A stretch of 64,000 bases of DNA from the sequence record OK272476.1; one strand, 5' to 3'. Below are positions 49,654 to 57,732 of this stretch, piece by piece (position 1 is the stretch's first letter; the number at the start of each line of letters is the position of its first letter). The translations under genes were made by a program, and so were the position numbers. The stretch is from Escherichia phage JLBYU24. The notes below the pieces were generated by a model. The model did not search any database. It was given only the letters and a program-made list of their open reading frames with translations, and had not been told where the DNA came from.

Positions 49654-50047
49654 TTTTACTAAATACGCAGAATATGATGGAAAAGACTATATAAGCACCG
49701 CATATAGATTGAACTAATACCATTCCAAAGAACCAAACAATATTATCAAACAATGTCTGTTTTACGTCGAAAGGACGTAAACTTACAGTAATATTATCAC
49801 CTTTTTCTATTGAAGAATACATCTCTGGAGAAATATATTCGCTAAATCTATAACCATCATTCAGCTCATATACAGCAATAAACGATAAACTAGACCCCTT
49901 TCCTTGTGTTCCTGTAAAGGTATTAACTACAGTAACATCATAATCTTTATAATGCATATAATCATTAATAGCATAATAACCATATGCAACTACTACGCAT
50001 AAACAACATATCAATAAATTCAATCTTTTAATTATCAACTGTTTCAT
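49640..50047 (-). CDS. membrane protein
   Basis: 135 aa; N- and C-terminal hydrophobic helices. Confidence 0.45.
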   Translation of the reverse strand: MKQLIIKRLNLLICCLCVVVAYGYYAINDYMHYKDYDVTVVNTFTGTQGKGSSLSFIAVYELNDGYRFSEYISPEMYSSIEKGDNITVSLRPFDVKQTLFDNIVWFFGMVLVQSICGAYIVFSIIFCVFSKIEIE

Positions 50048-50102
50048 AATAATCTCAATTAAAAGGGCTTAGAACCATTATACCATCCTTGGTATAAAGC
50101 GG

Positions 50103-50630
50103 TTATGCGAGTACCGTCTTTAACCGTTCTTCAAACTTCCGAAGAGTATTTTGGCGTTCAGCTCTTTGCTTTTTGTAAGTTTCAATACGCTCTGAAATGA
50201 GAGTGTATCGTTCATTTACTGATTCTTTCATAAAATCAGGAATTTCACGAGAAGCTTTAATCTCGTCAAATTTATCAATAACAGCTTGCTCTTCAGCAAT
50301 TAAGTTATCATACATCAAAATATCTTTCTTGATGAACTCAATATCTTCTTGAGTTACACGAGATAATTTAGATGCTTTATCCTTTTTGTACTGTTCGTTA
50401 GTATCACGAGACCAGTGTAATGTACGATTTTTATTCGTATTCTTGTAAATTTCTACAATACCAATCTCATCAATAATAACGATCCAATTCCAACGGGATT
50501 TGTAAATTTGTCCTCCATCAACAGTGATTTCACCTCCAATTGAGATGTCATTAAAGAACTTGCTTTGTGCTTCTGATTTAAATTTACCATCGTTGTAATT
50601 TACCAGGTTGAAAATATCTTTAGCGTTCAT
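50103..50630 (-). CDS. hypothetical protein
   Basis: ~175 aa from MNAKDIF with GGAGGAAC RBS. Confidence 0.45.
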   Translation of the reverse strand: MNAKDIFNLVNYNDGKFKSEAQSKFFNDISIGGEITVDGGQIYKSRWNWIVIIDEIGIVEIYKNTNKNRTLHWSRDTNEQYKKDKASKLSRVTQEDIEFIKKDILMYDNLIAEEQAVIDKFDEIKASREIPDFMKESVNERYTLISERIETYKKQRAERQNTLRKFEERLKTVLA

Positions 50631-50658
50631 TTTCTGTTCCTCCGTAGTTGATAGTTGT

Positions 50659-50688
50659 ATAGTACCATGGAGGAACAGTCTTGTAAAC
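50659..50688 (-). promoter_or_regulatory. T4-type early promoter in conserved cassette
   Basis: near-identical to 25706-25748 cassette. Confidence 0.5.
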
Positions 50689-50690
50689 AA

Positions 50691-51005
50691 CTAAAAGAAA
50701 CTTCTTTCACAATTTTTTCCACTGAACCACGCGCTCACTGCTTTCTTAGTCTCAGGAGCAGTGTTATCCATAAACCATTCAAAGGCAGCCTTTTTATGAT
50801 TCTGGAGGGCTTCTCGGGCTTTAATCTGCTCACGGTCTATTAACACTAACATATGAGCCTTTCTTGTCACCAAGGGCTTCTTATGATTCTTGGAGTATTC
50901 CCAATCATTTGTCCATCGCATCGTTGTTGCGAACTGAAATACTGCTTCTTTAATTTTAGTTTCGTAAATTTCACGAGCCTTTGAGTATAACATCACTACC
51001 TCCAT
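50691..51005 (-). CDS. hypothetical protein
   Basis: 104-aa ORF. Confidence 0.4.
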   Translation of the reverse strand: MEVVMLYSKAREIYETKIKEAVFQFATTMRWTNDWEYSKNHKKPLVTRKAHMLVLIDREQIKAREALQNHKKAAFEWFMDNTAPETKKAVSAWFSGKNCERSFF

Positions 51006-51094
51006 TTACCAGTTTAATTCTAGTCATCTTTTTAATGGCAGTCCATATAATCTATTTCTGAACTGCCTTTTTGTCATAGAAGGCCTCTTATGAA

Positions 51095-52063
51095 TTATTT
51101 CAGAAGAGTAACCTCAGCAATTTCTTCCCAACCATTTTTGTCGGTCATAATAAAGTCAGCAAGATAAAGAGCAGTACGCAGTGAAACATTGCGTAAACGA
51201 TTAACATTGACTTTCATCCATGATAATGCTTTATAAGTTTCTTCATCAGAAAGACCACGCTTTTGCATCATGTCGGTTGAAAGAATAACATCTTCAACCC
51301 TGACCATAATTTCTTCATTAGTGTGAACACCCAAATCTAAATAAACCGAGCGGGAAACTAATGCTTGCAAATGTGGAGCAAGTTTAGTACCACGGTCTAA
51401 TTCGCGGTCAATGTCAACGTTTGTGATAAAAACAATCGTTCCTTTAAATTCAAACTCACGCTCAATGCCTTTTTCTTCTAAGTAAGAAGATGCAGTGCTC
51501 CAGCAGACTTTACGGGTCTCTCCAGTGTCCAGAGCAGCTTTCAAAAGATTAAGAATGTCCATATCAGAGAAAACATCCACATCATCAATCAAAAGGACAG
51601 AATTCTCTTCACGATTATTCCAGAGCTGTTCATAAAGACCGATACCAGAGATTTTACCGTTAATGCTTTTATATTCAATGTATCCAATATCATTTGCTTT
51701 ATTTAAAGCTTTATCTAAAGAATACGTTTTACCAATGCCTGCCGCACCAGAGATAATTAATGAACGAATGTTTCCGTTAATAATACCATTCGTCATCATT
51801 CCCATAACATTAAATCTTTTATTAATGCGGGTTTTCATATCTTCATATGATTCTTTAACTTCTTCAACTTTTACACCATCATATGAAATGTCTGATTTGT
51901 AAACCCAAACACCGCGACGCTTACCGTCAATTTCAACAAAAACTTTACCATCTCCTTGTGCATCTACCGGAGCATTATCTGGGAACCATTCGCCTAAGAG
52001 CTCAAAAGTTCCAGAGATTTCTTTACCGAAGTAGATACCCTTATTGATAGTTACAGTTTTCAT
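51095..52063 (-). CDS. P-loop NTPase with N-terminal extra domain
   Basis: 322 aa; Walker A GAAGIGKT; Walker B LLIDDVD; AAGGAGA RBS. Confidence 0.6.
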   Translation of the reverse strand: MKTVTINKGIYFGKEISGTFELLGEWFPDNAPVDAQGDGKVFVEIDGKRRGVWVYKSDISYDGVKVEEVKESYEDMKTRINKRFNVMGMMTNGIINGNIRSLIISGAAGIGKTYSLDKALNKANDIGYIEYKSINGKISGIGLYEQLWNNREENSVLLIDDVDVFSDMDILNLLKAALDTGETRKVCWSTASSYLEEKGIEREFEFKGTIVFITNVDIDRELDRGTKLAPHLQALVSRSVYLDLGVHTNEEIMVRVEDVILSTDMMQKRGLSDEETYKALSWMKVNVNRLRNVSLRTALYLADFIMTDKNGWEEIAEVTLLK

Positions 52064-52120
52064 TTTATTCTCCTTTGATTTGATAGGACTACTATAACAT
52101 AGTCCTATCAGTTTGTATAC

Positions 52121-52321
52121 TTATTTTGACATTTCTTCGATGGCACGACGATACCCGTCACGAACTTCACGAAGAGCTTCAAGGCCACACATAGGCTCGA
52201 TACCAGTAATGTGAACTTGATTAATCTGATACTCTACATCTTCTAACTGAGCGAAAACATAACGACGTTCAGCTGCACACCCAGATTTAGCTTTACCGAA
52301 ACGTTTATTCAAAGTAGTCAT
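52121..52321 (-). CDS. hypothetical protein
   Basis: 66-aa ORF downstream of promoter 52360-52389. Confidence 0.4.
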   Translation of the reverse strand: MTTLNKRFGKAKSGCAAERRYVFAQLEDVEYQINQVHITGIEPMCGLEALREVRDGYRRAIEEMSK

Positions 52322-52359
52322 TTTGTATCTCCAATTTACTCATTTGTTTTGATAGTTGT

Positions 52360-52389
52360 ATAGTACCATAAAGCTTTATGCTTGTAAAC
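52360..52389 (-). promoter_or_regulatory. T4-type early promoter in conserved cassette
   Basis: gatagttgtatagtacca and cttgtaaacagttttgtgaaaa shared with 25706-25770. Confidence 0.5.
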
Positions 52390-52419
52390 AGTTTTGTGAA
52401 AAATTTTTGAAATAAAAAA

Positions 52420-52437
52420 GGGAGCCCGAAGGCTCCC
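52420..52437 (-). terminator. UUCG-loop hairpin 3' of nucleotidyltransferase gene
   Basis: gggagcc-cgaa-ggctccc, 7-bp GC-rich stem. Confidence 0.6.
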
Positions 52438-52439
52438 TA

Positions 52440-53453
52440 TCATTTATAATAACTTCGGTGGTTTTCAAGATAGACCTTCTCAAGGAAGTCATCCCAGAAA
52501 CTCATGTCTACTGTTTTAGGCATACCGTTCTTAGAAGCTTCAGTAGATGCTGCTTCTACTTGATCGACCACATCTTCCAAAAACTCTTGAACTGTTTTAA
52601 ATGGATGTTTACCCAACTTCACGTCGAGAATAAATGGAGCATCTTGAAGTGGATAGACTAAGTCACCAGTTTTGTAAATTTCCAATAGTTGGAGTCCACC
52701 ACGACAAGCATGACTTAGTGCTTTCCAATCAATGCCTTCATTGGCTTCGGCCTTACGAGCACGTTCACCGTATTCAGCATCTAATTTGTTCAGTGACTGC
52801 TTAAGCTCAATAAGAGAAAGCGTTGTCTGATATTTACGACCCAACACGGTGTAGAACGTTTGTGGGCCTGTTTTCTCATGATTATGGAACACCCATTCAC
52901 AGAATTCGTTTTCTGGAAGACGATGCTTAATATCTTCAACTTTAGTGCGACGCTGCTTAATAGAACCATCTTCTTGGTAATCAATCCACTGCTCAGGGAT
53001 TTGATTAACTACTTTCAATACATCACGTAATGCAGCCAAACGAGAACCTTTAACACCGTATTTAGAAGCTTGCTTGCGGACATATCCTAAATATGATTTC
53101 ATGTTAGTCGTATAAAAACGAGAACGGTTGTCTTGAATAAACTTCCACACATCAGGCAAATCAGATTTAACTACTAGTTCAGGTGGAGTGTGGAGCATAT
53201 CCAATGCTACAGTTTCACCATCTGCTGCTAATTTAAAGAAATATTTAAGACTGTATAGTTCATGGTCAATATCATCTTTAGTGTTTTTAGATGATGTGTT
53301 GTTAGTGTTTTTGCTCATATGCTCTTTAACGTTTCCGATAAGAATATCACGAGCAGGAGGAACAAAGATTTCTTTAAAATCTACATCAGATTCTGGGGTA
53401 GAAGTTCCATAAAGATGACTACCAAAATAGCTTTTCATTACTGTTTTCATCAT
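52440..53453 (-). CDS. Pol-beta-superfamily nucleotidyltransferase-like protein
   Basis: 337 aa; N-terminal YFGSHLYGTSTPESDVDF fits hG[GS]-x10-DhD; ATGA overlap with upstream gene. Confidence 0.55.
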   Translation of the reverse strand: MMKTVMKSYFGSHLYGTSTPESDVDFKEIFVPPARDILIGNVKEHMSKNTNNTSSKNTKDDIDHELYSLKYFFKLAADGETVALDMLHTPPELVVKSDLPDVWKFIQDNRSRFYTTNMKSYLGYVRKQASKYGVKGSRLAALRDVLKVVNQIPEQWIDYQEDGSIKQRRTKVEDIKHRLPENEFCEWVFHNHEKTGPQTFYTVLGRKYQTTLSLIELKQSLNKLDAEYGERARKAEANEGIDWKALSHACRGGLQLLEIYKTGDLVYPLQDAPFILDVKLGKHPFKTVQEFLEDVVDQVEAASTEASKNGMPKTVDMSFWDDFLEKVYLENHRSYYK

Positions 53454-53923
53454 TCAGCCTTATATTCAATAACAGGACATACTTTAGCTTTACGAGCTTT
53501 TAAAAATTCAACGATAATCGATTTCTTGGGTTGAATAGGCTCAAGTCCATTTTTGATTCGTTCTTCGTTTTGTATAATGAGTTCAATTTCTTTATTGAGC
53601 TTTCGGTCGTTATATTTGTCTAACAACCAGGAAGGACCAATTACCGCCGCGACTGCAATAAGAACCATTATTGATATTGTTAAAATACCTATACCAATTG
53701 AAGCCGGAACTAATGTCCATAGACTACTAAAGACAAAGAATTTAATTAAAATTTCTTGGCCAATGATTGCGGCACCTGCTAAAGTTGCAAATCCAACAAT
53801 TGAAACAGCTAATACCGGGAGAAACGTTTTCCAAAAATAAGCACATAACGTTTTTGGACGATTCCATGTGCTGTTAAATGCCGAGTAAATTTTAAAGTGC
53901 CAAGAGTTTTCATTAATAATCAT
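53450..53923 (-). CDS. integral membrane protein (about 3 TM helices)
   Basis: 157 aa; three hydrophobic segments; charged C-terminus. Confidence 0.5.
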   Translation of the reverse strand: MIINENSWHFKIYSAFNSTWNRPKTLCAYFWKTFLPVLAVSIVGFATLAGAAIIGQEILIKFFVFSSLWTLVPASIGIGILTISIMVLIAVAAVIGPSWLLDKYNDRKLNKEIELIIQNEERIKNGLEPIQPKKSIIVEFLKARKAKVCPVIEYKAE

Positions 53924-53925
53924 AA

Positions 53926-54447
53926 TTATCCTTTCATTGAAGGCGTAACGGTTGTTAAATACTTAATCATCGCTTCAGCTTCTGATTTTGATAATGAAAT
54001 TTCTTCATTGTTTTGACGAATAGAAATAAAATCCGGATGACGGTCACCACCAGCTTTTAAAACACATATATAAGTATCAGTTTCATCTTCAATATTTGAA
54101 ATGATTGAAGCAGTTCCACATGAATGCGGTTTTTGATAAATCAATACAGCTTTTCTTCCGCCATTTGACTGTTCATAAACTTTTAATACATCAAACAAAT
54201 CACTTCTTTTATCAATAGCTAAAATGTTATTTTCATCTTCAATGTTAAATCCTTCGGATACTTCATAAAGTGTTACCCATAAATCACCGATGTCAATAAC
54301 AGCATTTACTTTTCCACGGCTTTCAAGAGTATGACAAATTTTCTTGATTTCGTCATAACTCATTTTAATAATATCATCTCCTTGACTAAGAAAGATGTCA
54401 TTTTTAAATTCAACACGAATTAAACCGCTTTCACTTGAAATAAACAT
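53926..54447 (-). CDS. hypothetical protein, paralog of 54454-54999
   Basis: 173 aa; shared GFNIE and C-terminal EAxAxxxYLxxVxPxM motifs. Confidence 0.5.
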   Translation of the reverse strand: MFISSESGLIRVEFKNDIFLSQGDDIIKMSYDEIKKICHTLESRGKVNAVIDIGDLWVTLYEVSEGFNIEDENNILAIDKRSDLFDVLKVYEQSNGGRKAVLIYQKPHSCGTASIISNIEDETDTYICVLKAGGDRHPDFISIRQNNEEISLSKSEAEAMIKYLTTVTPSMKG

Positions 54448-54453
54448 ATTTCC

Positions 54454-54999
54454 TCACTTTGAAATCATAGTTGGAATAACAGAATCAAGATAAGTCTTTA
54501 GTGCAATAGCTTCGTCTTTGGTAAATGTGACAATATGCGATCGAAAATCATCAATTTGACGAATAGTTAAGACATCTCCATCTTCATAACATTTTGATAC
54601 GTTTAAAACAGTTTCATCATTCTGATTGCAAGCGTTAGTAATAATAGCATTGCAATTTTTAAACCATTTTAAACTATGTTTTCTTTCATTAGAATAATAA
54701 AAATATTTAATCTTAGTTATAAAATTATCCCAATTATTAATTGATAAGCATATTGACTCGCTTTCAATATTAAATCCTGGGCATAAAGAATAGAAATGAA
54801 TTTTATGCTCATCATTAATGCTTACAATTTTATCAGTATAAGAATTTTCAATTTGGGTTAAACGAACAATTTCGTTAGGCGTAAAATATAGCATATCGTC
54901 TTCTTGTGTCAAACGATACATATTATTTACTTTTTCTATAGCCAATTCACCAAAAAGTGAACTAACTTCTAATACTAATCGTTTCGCCTCACTCATCAT
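54454..54999 (-). CDS. hypothetical protein, paralog of 53926-54447
   Basis: 181 aa; AGGAGT RBS; first gene after promoter 55132-55161. Confidence 0.5.
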   Translation of the reverse strand: MMSEAKRLVLEVSSLFGELAIEKVNNMYRLTQEDDMLYFTPNEIVRLTQIENSYTDKIVSINDEHKIHFYSLCPGFNIESESICLSINNWDNFITKIKYFYYSNERKHSLKWFKNCNAIITNACNQNDETVLNVSKCYEDGDVLTIRQIDDFRSHIVTFTKDEAIALKTYLDSVIPTMISK

Positions 55000-55131
55000 T
55001 GTATACTCCTCTGAATCATATCAATAATGTTGTTCACCAGATTATAAGTAAACATTGGGTAATTATATTGAATCATCACATACACAACAAACAAAATTTT
55101 CATTCTCTTCTCCTTGACAGTTGACAAGATT

Positions 55132-55161
55132 ACTATACCATAACCTTGCCAACTTGTAAAC
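55132..55161 (-). promoter_or_regulatory. T4-type early promoter
   Basis: minus strand GTTTAC-N18-TATAGT. Confidence 0.5.
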
Positions 55162-55326
55162 CATTAAATGACGTTTTCAATAAAATTCTGAAGCTTTGTG
55201 TGAGCATCAACCATGATTTTCATTTCTTCCTTTGCGAAAGCCGTACCTCTTTCCCGAGCAGAATACTCATAGTCAGAAACTGCATTAGCATATTCTTCAA
55301 TTAGCTTCATTAAAAACATCTGCTTT

Positions 55327-55521
55327 TCAGTTTTCATTATTCCACCTAATCATTTCAAGATATTGAACTAATTTAGCTTTAGATTTGTCCAAATCCTTTT
55401 TAGCTGCTTCTATACCATCATATGAATATCCTTCACAATGTTCAACTGCCAATTGGTATGAATCTATTTCAATATCACGTGCTAATTTAATGATTTTTTC
55501 AAACTGTTCACGTGTTAGCAT
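55327..55521 (-). CDS. hypothetical protein
   Basis: 64-aa ORF. Confidence 0.4.
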   Translation of the reverse strand: MLTREQFEKIIKLARDIEIDSYQLAVEHCEGYSYDGIEAAKKDLDKSKAKLVQYLEMIRWNNEN

Positions 55522-55523
55522 AC

Positions 55524-55763
55524 TTAAACTCTCGTATTATGATCGATAATTTCATCAAGAAACATATCTAACGCTTCTAAAGCATTATCAACTTTAGCTT
55601 CAAGTTCATCAATACCTTTATTTGCAATGCCTGACGAAAACCAAGCAAAGTCACTAAGTTCCTCGTCTGCTTTACGAATTAAAGCTACTAATTCCTTAAT
55701 TTTATCTGCTTGTTCGATACTAATCATTATTCCACCACATATGAAAGAGAGAATATTGCACAC
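55524..55763 (-). CDS. hypothetical protein
   Basis: 79-aa ORF. Confidence 0.4.
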
Positions 55764-55915
55764 GCCATGTGAGTTGCAACTTCATCACACATATTATAAC
55801 GTTTCTTAAGAAGTTCTACAAGTTCTTCACTAGTAACTTCATCCATGTCGACGAAAAAATCACCATTAATGATGACGTAGATATTTCCTTCTTGATTGAG
55901 TGCTTCAATTTTCAT
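55727..55915 (-). CDS. hypothetical protein
   Basis: ~62 aa from MKIEALNQ with AAGAGGAGA RBS; track ORF extends into promoter. Confidence 0.4.
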
Positions 55916-55943
55916 GATGTTCTCCTCTTTATCCGATGGTTGT

Positions 55944-55973
55944 ATAGTATCACAGCTCAAATGGAAAGTAAAC
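55944..55973 (-). promoter_or_regulatory. T4-type early promoter
   Basis: minus strand GTTTAC-N18-TACTAT. Confidence 0.45.
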
Positions 55974-55989
55974 CGGTAAAATGAAAAAA

Positions 55990-56005
55990 GTCTCCCGAAG
56001 GAGAC
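55990..56005 (-). terminator. UUCG-loop hairpin
   Basis: gtctcc-cgaa-ggagac 3' of ORF 56011-56397. Confidence 0.5.
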
Positions 56006-56010
56006 TAACG

Positions 56011-56397
56011 TTATTCGAGGGAAAGAAGATATTTACTCTGGTAAAACATTCCAGTAATATCATCTATCGTGCTTTGAATGGCTGGAGGCATTTCTTTATA
56101 AATGCTGTTAGATTGGTCTAGTATGCGATCAATCATTTTAATTGTGTCGGTAGGAAGTTTACTGGCATCTGGAATTGAAGGCGTGTATTTTCTACCAGAA
56201 TACCCCAAATATTGCTCACCAAATTTATCAATCAAATCTGGCAACTCGGAGAAAATAAAATCGTATGCTTTGTGTCTAGCATAACTTTTAGTTTCAAAAT
56301 GTGCAGAATGAAAATAAGCTTGTGCAGCCATTAATAAACCTAAGTATTCATCTGCCTTTGAAGGTTTTCCACTTTGTGAAAAGTCGCTGAATTTCAT
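56011..56397 (-). CDS. hypothetical protein (rI.-1 position)
   Basis: 128-aa ORF overlapping rI stop. Confidence 0.45.
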
Positions 56398-56687
56398 TCA
56401 GTCTCCAATTTAATGTTCATAATTCTAGCGTATGATTGTGCCATCTCCGCGCCTCGCTCTATACATTCAAAATCAGAAGAGCACGGGTCATTTTTATAGG
56501 TCGTTCTCATAAAACTATAGAATTGTTCAGACGATTCTACGCTTTTATTTTCAAAAAGCATATAAACGTGCCTAATACCAGATTCCATAAATTTATCAAA
56601 ATGAGGATCGACATTCGCTTCAATCGATGGAGATAAAACAAATGACAATCCTAGCATGGCAAAAAGTGCCGTTGCTTTTAAGGCCAT
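56394..56687 (-). CDS. rI: lysis inhibition regulator rI
   Basis: 97 aa; N-terminal signal-anchor; size and position next to tk. Confidence 0.75.
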   Translation of the reverse strand: MALKATALFAMLGLSFVLSPSIEANVDPHFDKFMESGIRHVYMLFENKSVESSEQFYSFMRTTYKNDPCSSDFECIERGAEMAQSYARIMNIKLETE

Positions 56688-56699
56688 AAAGGCCTCCTA

Positions 56700-56912
56700 T
56701 CATTTTTGTCCTGTATTTACTTTATGCCGATGCACGGCCTTAACTTTATCAAGGTATTTTTCAAAATTTCGCAATCTAGTATAGTCTGCCGGAGATTGGT
56801 TGAGTGATACTTCTCGACGCAAAGCTGAAATGATATTTCCAACTTCCCTACGAATTTCATCTAATTGAAGAACAGTAAGATTGCGAAGTTGCTTTTCAGT
56901 TAATTGTAGCAT
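56700..56912 (-). CDS. hypothetical protein
   Basis: 70-aa ORF. Confidence 0.4.
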
Positions 56913-56955
56913 ATAATACCCCTTTAGTTAGATAAACCTATTTATAACTTTTGCA

Positions 56956-57537
56956 CTAACCGAGCTTTTTAGTTAATTCATTCCAATGTTTTCTGCACAA
57001 AGAAACATAAATTTCATCACCAATACAGATTTGATTACCTTCTTTAACTGGTGTTCCATCTTCCATTAATCGAGCTGTCATAATCGCTTTTTTGCCGCAA
57101 TGACAAACTGCCTTTAGTTCAATAAGTTTATCTGCAATCGCTAAAAGTTCTTTAGAACCTTCAAACAATTTTCCAGCGAAATCAGTCCTTAATCCATAAG
57201 CCATAACAGGAACATTATATGTATCAACAATTCGGCTTAATTGGTGCACCTGTTCAGTTTTTAAAAACTGAGCTTCATCTACAAATACGCAATGAATATC
57301 TTTTTGTGCTTCAGCCCATTTATAGAACTCGAAAATATCCATATCATCTGTAATAATATTCGCTTCCTGTTTAATTCCAATGCGAGAAACAACTTCACAG
57401 ACAGAATCGCGAGTATCAATAGCAGGCTTAAGAACTAATACACTCATTCCACGTTCTTTATAATTATGTGCAGCAGTCAAAAGAGAAGCAGATTTTCCAG
57501 CATTCATTGCTGCATAAGTAAAAATTAAACTCGCCAT
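56956..57537 (-). CDS. tk: thymidine kinase
   Basis: 193 aa; P-loop AAMNAGKS; C-terminal Cys pairs; size match. Confidence 0.92.
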   Translation of the reverse strand: MASLIFTYAAMNAGKSASLLTAAHNYKERGMSVLVLKPAIDTRDSVCEVVSRIGIKQEANIITDDMDIFEFYKWAEAQKDIHCVFVDEAQFLKTEQVHQLSRIVDTYNVPVMAYGLRTDFAGKLFEGSKELLAIADKLIELKAVCHCGKKAIMTARLMEDGTPVKEGNQICIGDEIYVSLCRKHWNELTKKLG

Positions 57538-57546
57538 ATCACCTTC

Positions 57547-57732
57547 TTAAAGCGTATTCACATAAGCTATTAATTCATTTTCTTTCTTATCAAACCGGTC
57601 AGCAAATTCTTCTTGTTGTTCGGGAGATAGCGGGCCGTATTCATCATAAAAGGTGTTTGCTTCTGTATGCTCATCTAGAAGTTCATGGATAAGCTCAAAC
57701 AATTTATCTTTTTGTTCTTTACTTAGACTCAT
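57547..57732 (-). CDS. hypothetical protein
   Basis: 61-aa acidic ORF. Confidence 0.4.
   Translation of the reverse strand: MSLSKEQKDKLFELIHELLDEHTEANTFYDEYGPLSPEQQEEFADRFDKKENELIAYVNTL

Follow-up and report, generated by a model that had tools for sequence, protein, structure and literature searches.

A 64,000-nucleotide (nt) stretch of Escherichia phage JLBYU24 (OK272476.1; "the window" below means this whole stretch) is a genome segment of a T2/T4-type phage (Tequatrovirus). In its rI-tk to nrdC region the minus strand carries an early transcription unit that ends with an ortholog of the T4 gene nrdC.11. Sequence conservation and structure modeling together identify the product, NrdC.11, as a DNA polymerase beta (Pol-beta)-type nucleotidyltransferase (NTase) of the RlaP family, with D23, D25 and D63 as its catalytic triad. 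From the fold, the catalytic residues, the family and the operon contexts of the NrdC.11 clade we infer a substrate, a product and a role in vivo: NrdC.11 probably repairs ends of RNA, in particular of tRNA, that host ribotoxins have damaged, and this we consider the most likely mechanism. The first-pass annotation of this DNA, made from the letters alone, had recognized the NTase and suggested a role in anti-defense. Such a role is likely in the broad sense of countering host ribotoxins, but not in the nucleotide-signaling or toxin/antitoxin form then suggested. It had matched the genes to no named T-even function, whereas they are mobD.2, mobD.1 and nrdC.11, together with two open reading frames (ORFs) that T4 has lost to mobD and that are carried by hundreds of T-even phages. 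The present analysis thus recognizes correctly a computationally annotated gene rather than a new system, and the NTase function has already been published as a prediction: orthologs of nrdC.11 were assigned to the COG3541 nucleotidyltransferases in 2006 (PMC1524935), and the gene was later placed among the RlaP RNA-repair NTases (PMC7824862; bioRxiv 10.64898/2025.12.29.696909).

NrdC.11 as a nucleotidyltransferase of the RlaP family

NrdC.11 of the window matches the Pfam family RlaP (PF10127, "RNA repair pathway DNA polymerase beta family") with 43.9 bits against a 23-bit cut-off (E = 3e-11), and phrog_388 ("nucleotidyltransferase") at E = 7e-138. The Pfam match covers only positions 23-142 of the 249 in the profile, that is, its N-terminal half. 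When this long form was compared with full-length canonical RlaP using hhalign, the two aligned over residues 4-148 with 94.7% probability, and the remainder of NrdC.11 beyond residue 148, with a beta-subdomain at 155-209, is specific to its clade. No protein of the unit gained a useful match from NCBIfam.

In an alignment of 47 homologs (34-85% identity), residues G11, S12, G16, S22, D23, D25, N57 and D63 are invariant, as are W243, K244, H248 and R251 in the C-terminal part of the protein; D61 (at least 90%) and D85 are nearly so. The minimal NTase motif singled out in the first-pass annotation, hG[GS]...DxD, is present as F10-G11-S12 ... D23-V-D25 (YFGSHLYGTSTPESDVDF at residues 9-26), and the further acidic cluster, DID, lies at residues 61-63. 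The GS and DxD residues are therefore conserved among orthologs, and homology search placed the protein with the RlaP NTases rather than with a T-even function unrelated to nucleotidyl transfer. Structure prediction, which the same annotation had called for, gave a confident AlphaFold2 model (predicted local distance difference test, pLDDT, 92.5) in which D63 lies on strand 62-68, beside the strand (24-31) with D23 and D25, so that the DID cluster holds the third catalytic carboxylate. All significant matches of the predicted fold in the PDB are Pol-beta NTases; the best found by Foldseek are kanamycin/ANT(4') nucleotidyltransferases, and 3c18 and HalB are also matched (E about 4e-3, TM-scores 0.25-0.41). 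Searches of the PDB with the single sequence and with the profile found no solved sequence relative of the NTase, the copy searched evidently lacking the crystal structure of PfRlaP from bioRxiv 10.64898/2025.12.29.696909.

The NTase family is large, comprising 3,506 clusters at 50% identity (E <= 1e-3), and is found in 1,517 phage records with Escherichia, Klebsiella, Aeromonas, Acinetobacter and Vibrio as hosts. In Acinetobacter phage fHyAci03 the ortholog is divided between two ORFs of 147 and 191 amino acids (aa) (locus L006, 3483-4523); a frameshift, a pseudogene or an error of sequencing would account for this.

RNA-repair context of the clade and rival readings

RlaP was defined through its association with RNA ligases; it is the commonest NTase of jumbo phages, and its distribution mirrors that of RNA ligases (PMC7824862). 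The RlaP proteins of Pseudomonas fluorescens and P. aeruginosa add one or two nucleoside monophosphates (NMP, or dNMP) to the 3'-OH of RNA and not of DNA. The end of damaged tRNA is preferred, and the aminoacylation of over-damaged tRNA is rescued after repair (bioRxiv 10.64898/2025.12.29.696909). According to the abstract of that preprint, RNA is the only substrate measured for RlaP among cellular macromolecules. T4 NrdC.11 is named in the preprint as an uncharacterized RlaP belonging to a separate cluster, number 5, of the network.

Bacterial and archaeal genomes were scanned with the alignment of the NrdC.11 clade. This gave 156 loci, 80 of which were kept and 72 of which have a clear full-length homolog (32-54% identity). 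At 13 of these 72 cellular loci a gene for RtcB, RtcA, Pnkp, Hen1 or Ro60 was found within 5 kb. The RNA-end healing and sealing enzymes RtcB, RtcA, Pnkp (a kinase-phosphatase-ligase) and Hen1, plus Ro60, were in fact the only recurrent recognizable neighbors of the cellular homologs. The order RtcB-RtcA-NrdC.11-like-RlaP is seen at one locus (L119, 5004-6746), and Hen1-Pnkp-NrdC.11-like at two others (L163 and L139, 5001-6802). At 19 of the 72 loci, in both bacteria and archaea, a canonical short RlaP follows immediately downstream (full-length PF10127 match, E = 3e-51), in some cases within an RtcB-RtcA or a Hen1-Pnkp operon. The long and short forms in tandem suggest two distinct activities, with a non-redundant role for the long form. 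No homolog of any other protein of the window was found at the 72 loci, and an ORF with multiple transmembrane (TM) segments adjoins the NrdC.11 homolog at only 5 of them, so that there is no conserved membrane neighbor.

NrdC.11 thus resembles the RlaP of rtcB-rlaP-rtcA operons in its PF10127 membership, in the GS/DxD/D residues and in the N-terminal NTase domain with the first helices, and the cellular members of its clade lie in the same kinds of operon (RtcB/RtcA or Pnkp/Hen1). It differs in its length of about 320-340 aa, against about 255 aa, in its distinct C-terminal half, in its separate cluster and in that the phage gene has no adjoining ligase gene: in the window as in T4, the RNA ligase and Pnkp genes are encoded elsewhere. 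A second NTase acting on RNA ends is present in the cluster of Vibrio phage 11895-B1 (locus L008, 1275-4921), where the NrdC.11 homolog lies two genes 3' of a gene for a CCA-adding enzyme, itself interrupted by an HNH endonuclease gene.

Since homologs of the clade lie in repair operons and Pseudomonas RlaP extends RNA 3'-OH ends, RNA-end repair is the best reading of NrdC.11. The repair of PrrC-cut tRNA by T4 Pnkp and Rnl1 is the founding example of RNA repair. That pathway (genes pseT and rnlA) belongs to the same phage lineage and would share with NrdC.11 its purpose, the undoing of ribotoxin damage to tRNA, but it mends a clean single cut. NrdC.11, as a template-independent NTase, would add the step for missing nucleotides, restoring those lost at the 3'-OH ends of ribotoxin-damaged RNA, after which the T4 polynucleotide kinase-phosphatase and RNA ligase 1 or 2 could heal and seal a functional, full-length tRNA. 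NrdC.11 would then join the classical T4 counter-defense by RNA repair as its third component and extend it to nucleases that, like RloC, excise nucleotides. The genes of the classical pathway are unlinked to nrdC.11, and their cooperation with it is proposed here. RloC excises the wobble nucleotide, a lesion that, by the abstracts of two reports, is expected to impede phage repair (PMC3458546, PMC2610378). Should NrdC.11 put back the nucleotide lost in this way, T-even phages would already possess a counter-move to nucleases of this type, and a function would be assigned to a T4 gene that is conserved in about 1,500 sequenced phages and has long gone unexplained. Side leads that could widen the list of parts of phage RNA repair are the PUR-like MobD.1 proteins and the membrane protein, both described below, and the tandem long and short RlaP.

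NrdC.11 might instead have a target other than RNA awaiting repair, tailing or marking RNA of host or phage for decay or stabilization, AMPylating protein, or modifying small molecules in the manner of the aminoglycoside NTases. We consider this unlikely, though not negligibly so. The kanamycin/ANT(4') enzymes are the top Foldseek matches, but these matches are weak and reflect the common core of the fold. Repair neighbors are lacking at most cellular loci, but the recognizable neighbors that do recur are RNA-end enzymes and Ro60 only. The preprint on Pseudomonas RlaP describes nucleotide addition without sequence specificity (bioRxiv 10.64898/2025.12.29.696909), yet by its abstract RNA alone was the cellular-macromolecule substrate. 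The C-terminal half does not align to canonical RlaP, and because it is unique to the clade a non-repair activity keeps some probability.

The partnership with a membrane protein had led the first-pass annotation to nucleotide signaling or toxin/antitoxin modules, and this comparison found no support. The membrane gene is not a constant partner of the NTase, and none of six proteins searched matches PADLOC-DB (v2.0.0, older than Hailong) at E <= 0.1, its CBASS CD-NTase and other defense-signaling models included. Signaling has one real precedent in Hailong, a host defense formed by the membrane channel HalA and the NTase HalB, whereas the present unit consists of phage genes. By analogy, an oligonucleotide made by NrdC.11 could gate the adjacent membrane protein, with superinfection exclusion or timing control as the outcome, or could act as a decoy that keeps a host HalA-type channel closed. 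Either version is very unlikely, having failed the tests of sequence, partner identity, priming tyrosine and obligate pairing. The NTase and membrane-protein profiles show no sequence relationship to HalB or HalA. HalB has about 217 aa and uses a tyrosine at its C-terminus for priming, but the 47 homologs of NrdC.11 show no conservation at this end. Each of the two genes also occurs without the other, the NTase in T4 and other phages and at cellular loci, the membrane gene at loci from IMG/VR. A minimal NTase (MNT) of the toxin-antitoxin type (MNT/MntA or MenT) that acts as a toxin or neutralizes one, partnered by the genes upstream of it, is extremely improbable: the MntA model gives 13 bits against a 60-bit cut-off, NrdC.11 is a protein of 337 aa whose large C-terminal region is conserved, against about 100-140 aa in MNTs, Pfam and PHROG scans found no adjacent HEPN gene in the unit, and in T4 nrdC.11 is dispensable together with its neighbors, with no reported toxicity (PMC9825161).

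The early transcription unit and its counterpart in T4

Five minus-strand ORFs lie between an early promoter and an intrinsic terminator (Table 1). As read from the sequence, their order is mobD.2 - mobD.1 - mobD.1 paralog - PHROG-944 membrane protein - nrdC.11. Four co-directional genes had been counted at first; the common direction holds, and the count missed the short mobD.2 homolog.

Table 1. Coordinates of the genes and signals of the nrdC.11 early unit, in window positions
Feature	Coordinates	Strand	Basis
Early (sigma-70) T4-type promoter	55132..55160	-	TTTACA, 17-nt spacer with TG extension, TATAGT; pattern scan
mobD.2 homolog, 35 aa	54996..55103	-	Homology to T4 mobD.2 (34 aa); AAGGAG Shine-Dalgarno 7 nt upstream
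MobD.1 ortholog, 181 aa	54454..54999	-	88% identity to T4 MobD.1 (UniProt P39240)
MobD.1 paralog, 173 aa	53926..54447	-	27% identity to MobD.1, E = 6e-10; T4 without it
Membrane protein, 157 aa	53450..53923	-	phrog_944 ("membrane protein"), E = 2e-50; hydropathy; T4 without it
NrdC.11 ortholog, 337 aa, long-form RlaP-family Pol-beta nucleotidyltransferase	52440..53453	-	97.6% identity to T4 NrdC.11 (P39242)
Intrinsic terminator	52410..52438	-	8-bp G+C-rich stem (at 52438-52419), UUCG loop, U-run
Next early-type promoter	52360..52388	-	TTTACA-17-TACTAT with TG; pattern scan; kept in T4

The promoter noted at the first pass, as located here by pattern scan, agrees with the consensus at 10 of 12 positions. 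Promoter-like sites were only mildly enriched in this AT-rich region, with 40 observed against 28.6 +/- 5.2 in shuffled sequences, and the pattern alone is therefore weak evidence. The promoter is, however, nearly identical 5' to mobD.2 in T4, where the hexamers and the TG extension are the same and two spacer bases differ. Likewise the strong UUCG hairpin, rightly taken to close the unit, has six G-C pairs among the 8 bp of its stem and is followed by a TTTTTTATTT run. Its predicted energy of -17.7 kcal/mol (z = -3.67) was equaled by none of 200 shuffles, and the hairpin and T-run after T4 nrdC.11 are identical to it. The early-type promoter that follows opens the next unit and sets the downstream boundary of this one. 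Rfam gave no RNA family above threshold within 50000-57600. The top sigma-70-like site of the region, TTGACA-16-TATATT (11/12, with TG), lies at 54885-54912 (-) within the coding sequence of mobD.1 and may represent either an internal promoter or, in DNA so rich in AT, a fortuitous match.

Stop and start codons overlap as ATGA at two junctions, between the mobD.2 homolog and the 181-aa gene and between the membrane gene and the NTase gene, the latter overlap, of 4 nt, having been noted before. The T4 annotation starts the NTase at the second ATG, which would leave an overlap of 1 nt with the membrane gene. Judged from this arrangement, the genes upstream of the NTase gene are transcribed together with it and coupled to it in translation. 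In the supplement to PMC9697503, the T4 transcripts of mobD.2, mobD.1, mobD and nrdC.11 are of the early class by RNA-seq, and by proteomics MobD.1 is detected early and NrdC.11 falls in the middle class. On the basis of the sequence, its conservation in T4 and these expression data, the genes form a single early unit, transcribed by the host RNA polymerase from one early promoter to one intrinsic terminator.

The arrangement of the region is common, 368 phage records covering at least 80% of it. T4 (NC_000866) has orthologs of mobD.2, mobD.1 and nrdC.11 and shares the promoter, the terminator and the following promoter, but the HNH homing-endonuclease gene mobD stands in place of the 173-aa paralog and the 157-aa membrane gene. 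What remains of the paralog gene in T4 is its ribosome-binding site and first six codons (ATGTTTATTTCAAGTG), after which the mobD cassette begins. The mobD.1/mobD junction of T4 (locus L001, 13195-13300) was compared with 54430-54470 of the window, and the other breakpoint is the start of nrdC.11. By this comparison the T4 junction is the clean footprint of a homing-endonuclease cassette that displaced two genes. The membrane gene adjoins the NTase gene in Mosigvirus too and is nearly adjacent to it in Jiaodavirus and an Acinetobacter phage, so that the arrangement of the window is ancestral and that of T4 derived. Because T4 exchanged two of the upstream genes for a homing endonuclease and kept nrdC.11, the upstream genes are not obligate partners of the NTase, which also occurs without the membrane gene in KP15 and other phages. 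T4 survives loss of the whole nrdC.11-mobD.3 block (PMC9825161).

Just 5' of the promoter, at 55164-55763 (-), are three tandem DUF7438 (PF24219) paralogs of 57, 64 and 79 aa. These are the equivalents of T4 mobD.2a, mobD.3 and mobD.4, the T4 mobD.2a product (38 aa) being shortened relative to the 57-aa ORF. On the other side, between nrdC.11 and nrdC.10, a 66-aa ORF (phrog_6200) at 52121-52321 (-) is the first of the next early unit and has no counterpart there in T4. The NrdC.10 ortholog (51095-52063, -) is a 322-aa P-loop ATPase resembling AAA/STAND proteins, with weak Pfam matches, and its gene is syntenic 3' of nrdC.11 in Escherichia, Klebsiella and Acinetobacter T4-like phages. The AAA ATPase was considered as a partner of the NTase and dropped, since despite this synteny it has no homolog at the 72 cellular loci.

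The PHROG-944 membrane protein and the MobD.1 proteins

The first-pass annotation described the 157-aa protein as having three TM segments. It is indeed assigned to a membrane-protein family, but three segments are not established: hydropathy gives two strong hydrophobic segments and one weaker (33-55, 58-76, 76-100), and two to three TM helices are predicted. The conserved residues of the family are terminal (W8, H9, C27, Y29, F30 and W31; K142, K147, C149 and P150) and fall in two motifs, an N-terminal SWH...LCxYFW and a C-terminal LKAKKxKxCPxIE, with W8, C27, Y29, K142, K147 and C149 invariant in the alignment. A profile search of the PDB found no solved sequence relative. Phage records with a PHROG-944 member number 1,259, and Pakpunavirus, ICP1 and GAP32-like jumbo phages are among them. 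The allele of the window is rare, about 10 of the 1,259 records being at least 90% identical to it. In most Tequatroviruses the allele shares about 54% identity with it, against 95-98% in the flanks; among the common alleles, those of Mosigvirus come closest (about 77-80%). Comparison of the alleles and their flanks indicates that the locus is mosaic or fast-evolving.

The neighborhoods of the membrane gene were examined at 70 IMG/VR loci, which form 29 neighborhood groups. An RNA-end enzyme is encoded within two genes of the membrane gene in 3 of the 29 groups, an unrelated one in each, and the other 26 have other neighbors, so that the association with RNA repair holds for a minority only. 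For the main T4-like group this enzyme is the RlaP NTase, at all 21 loci. In Pakpunavirus (PAK_P4; locus L011, 2501-3837) the membrane gene directly precedes the genes for an Rnl1-type ligase and a kinase (AAA_33), and a metallophosphoesterase gene lies close by. In a distant T4-like contig (locus L050, 3989-5816) an ortholog of T4 Rnl2 lies one small gene 3' of it, at a different genomic location. ICP1, GAP32-like jumbo phages, Aeromonas phage CC2, Yersinia phage JC221 and many IMG/VR contigs have beside it genes that lack a Pfam match or unrelated genes of DNA metabolism, such as those for PolB, a helicase, DUF2800, ERCC4 and adenylosuccinate synthetase. No PHROG-944 member was found in either relevant region of T4. 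Chance adjacency might be expected in about 1-2% per lineage, a rough inferred figure with no computed null behind it, and the 3 of 29 groups are suggestive, though they do not prove an association. The PHROG-944 protein, perhaps together with the two PUR-like MobD.1 proteins, might serve the RNA-repair enzymes of phages as a dedicated accessory, which is quite unlikely. Such an accessory could hold repair at the inner membrane or regulate it there, or could sense the activity of ribotoxins associated with the membrane, and the phage response to ribotoxins would then have a new layer, linked to the membrane.

The product of the first gene of the unit aligns with T4 MobD.2 as MKVLFVIYVMIQYNYPMFTYNLVNNIINMIQRSM against MKILFVVYVMIQYNYPMFTYNLVNNIIDMIQRSIQ; the PMC9697503 supplement classes the T4 RNA as early and lists the protein as not detected. 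The next two genes are the paralogs recognized at the first pass, and besides their mutual similarity both products match the Pfam domains T4_y05I_N and T4_y05I_C. The 173-aa paralog is present in 479 phage records. The model of MobD.1 consists of three beta-beta-beta-beta-alpha repeats of PUR/Whirly-like form, the third being modeled with little confidence (pLDDT 41-52). Both MobD.1 and the paralog are thus predicted to be PUR/Whirly-like single-strand nucleic-acid binders, which may dimerize through the third repeat, but their sequence identity to PUR-alpha, Whirly and MRP1/MRP2 is only 6-10%. Because the PUR/Whirly class binds single-strand nucleic acid, the Pfam label "putative transcription factor", itself only a prediction, can be understood in these terms. 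In Klebsiella T4-like phages a single-repeat relative of the C-domain stands 5' of the membrane gene. A protein of a metagenomic T-even relative, P0360, is a chimera in which the first two-thirds of MobD.1 are continued by a C-terminal part from the paralog, which is evidence for recombination between the tandem paralogs.

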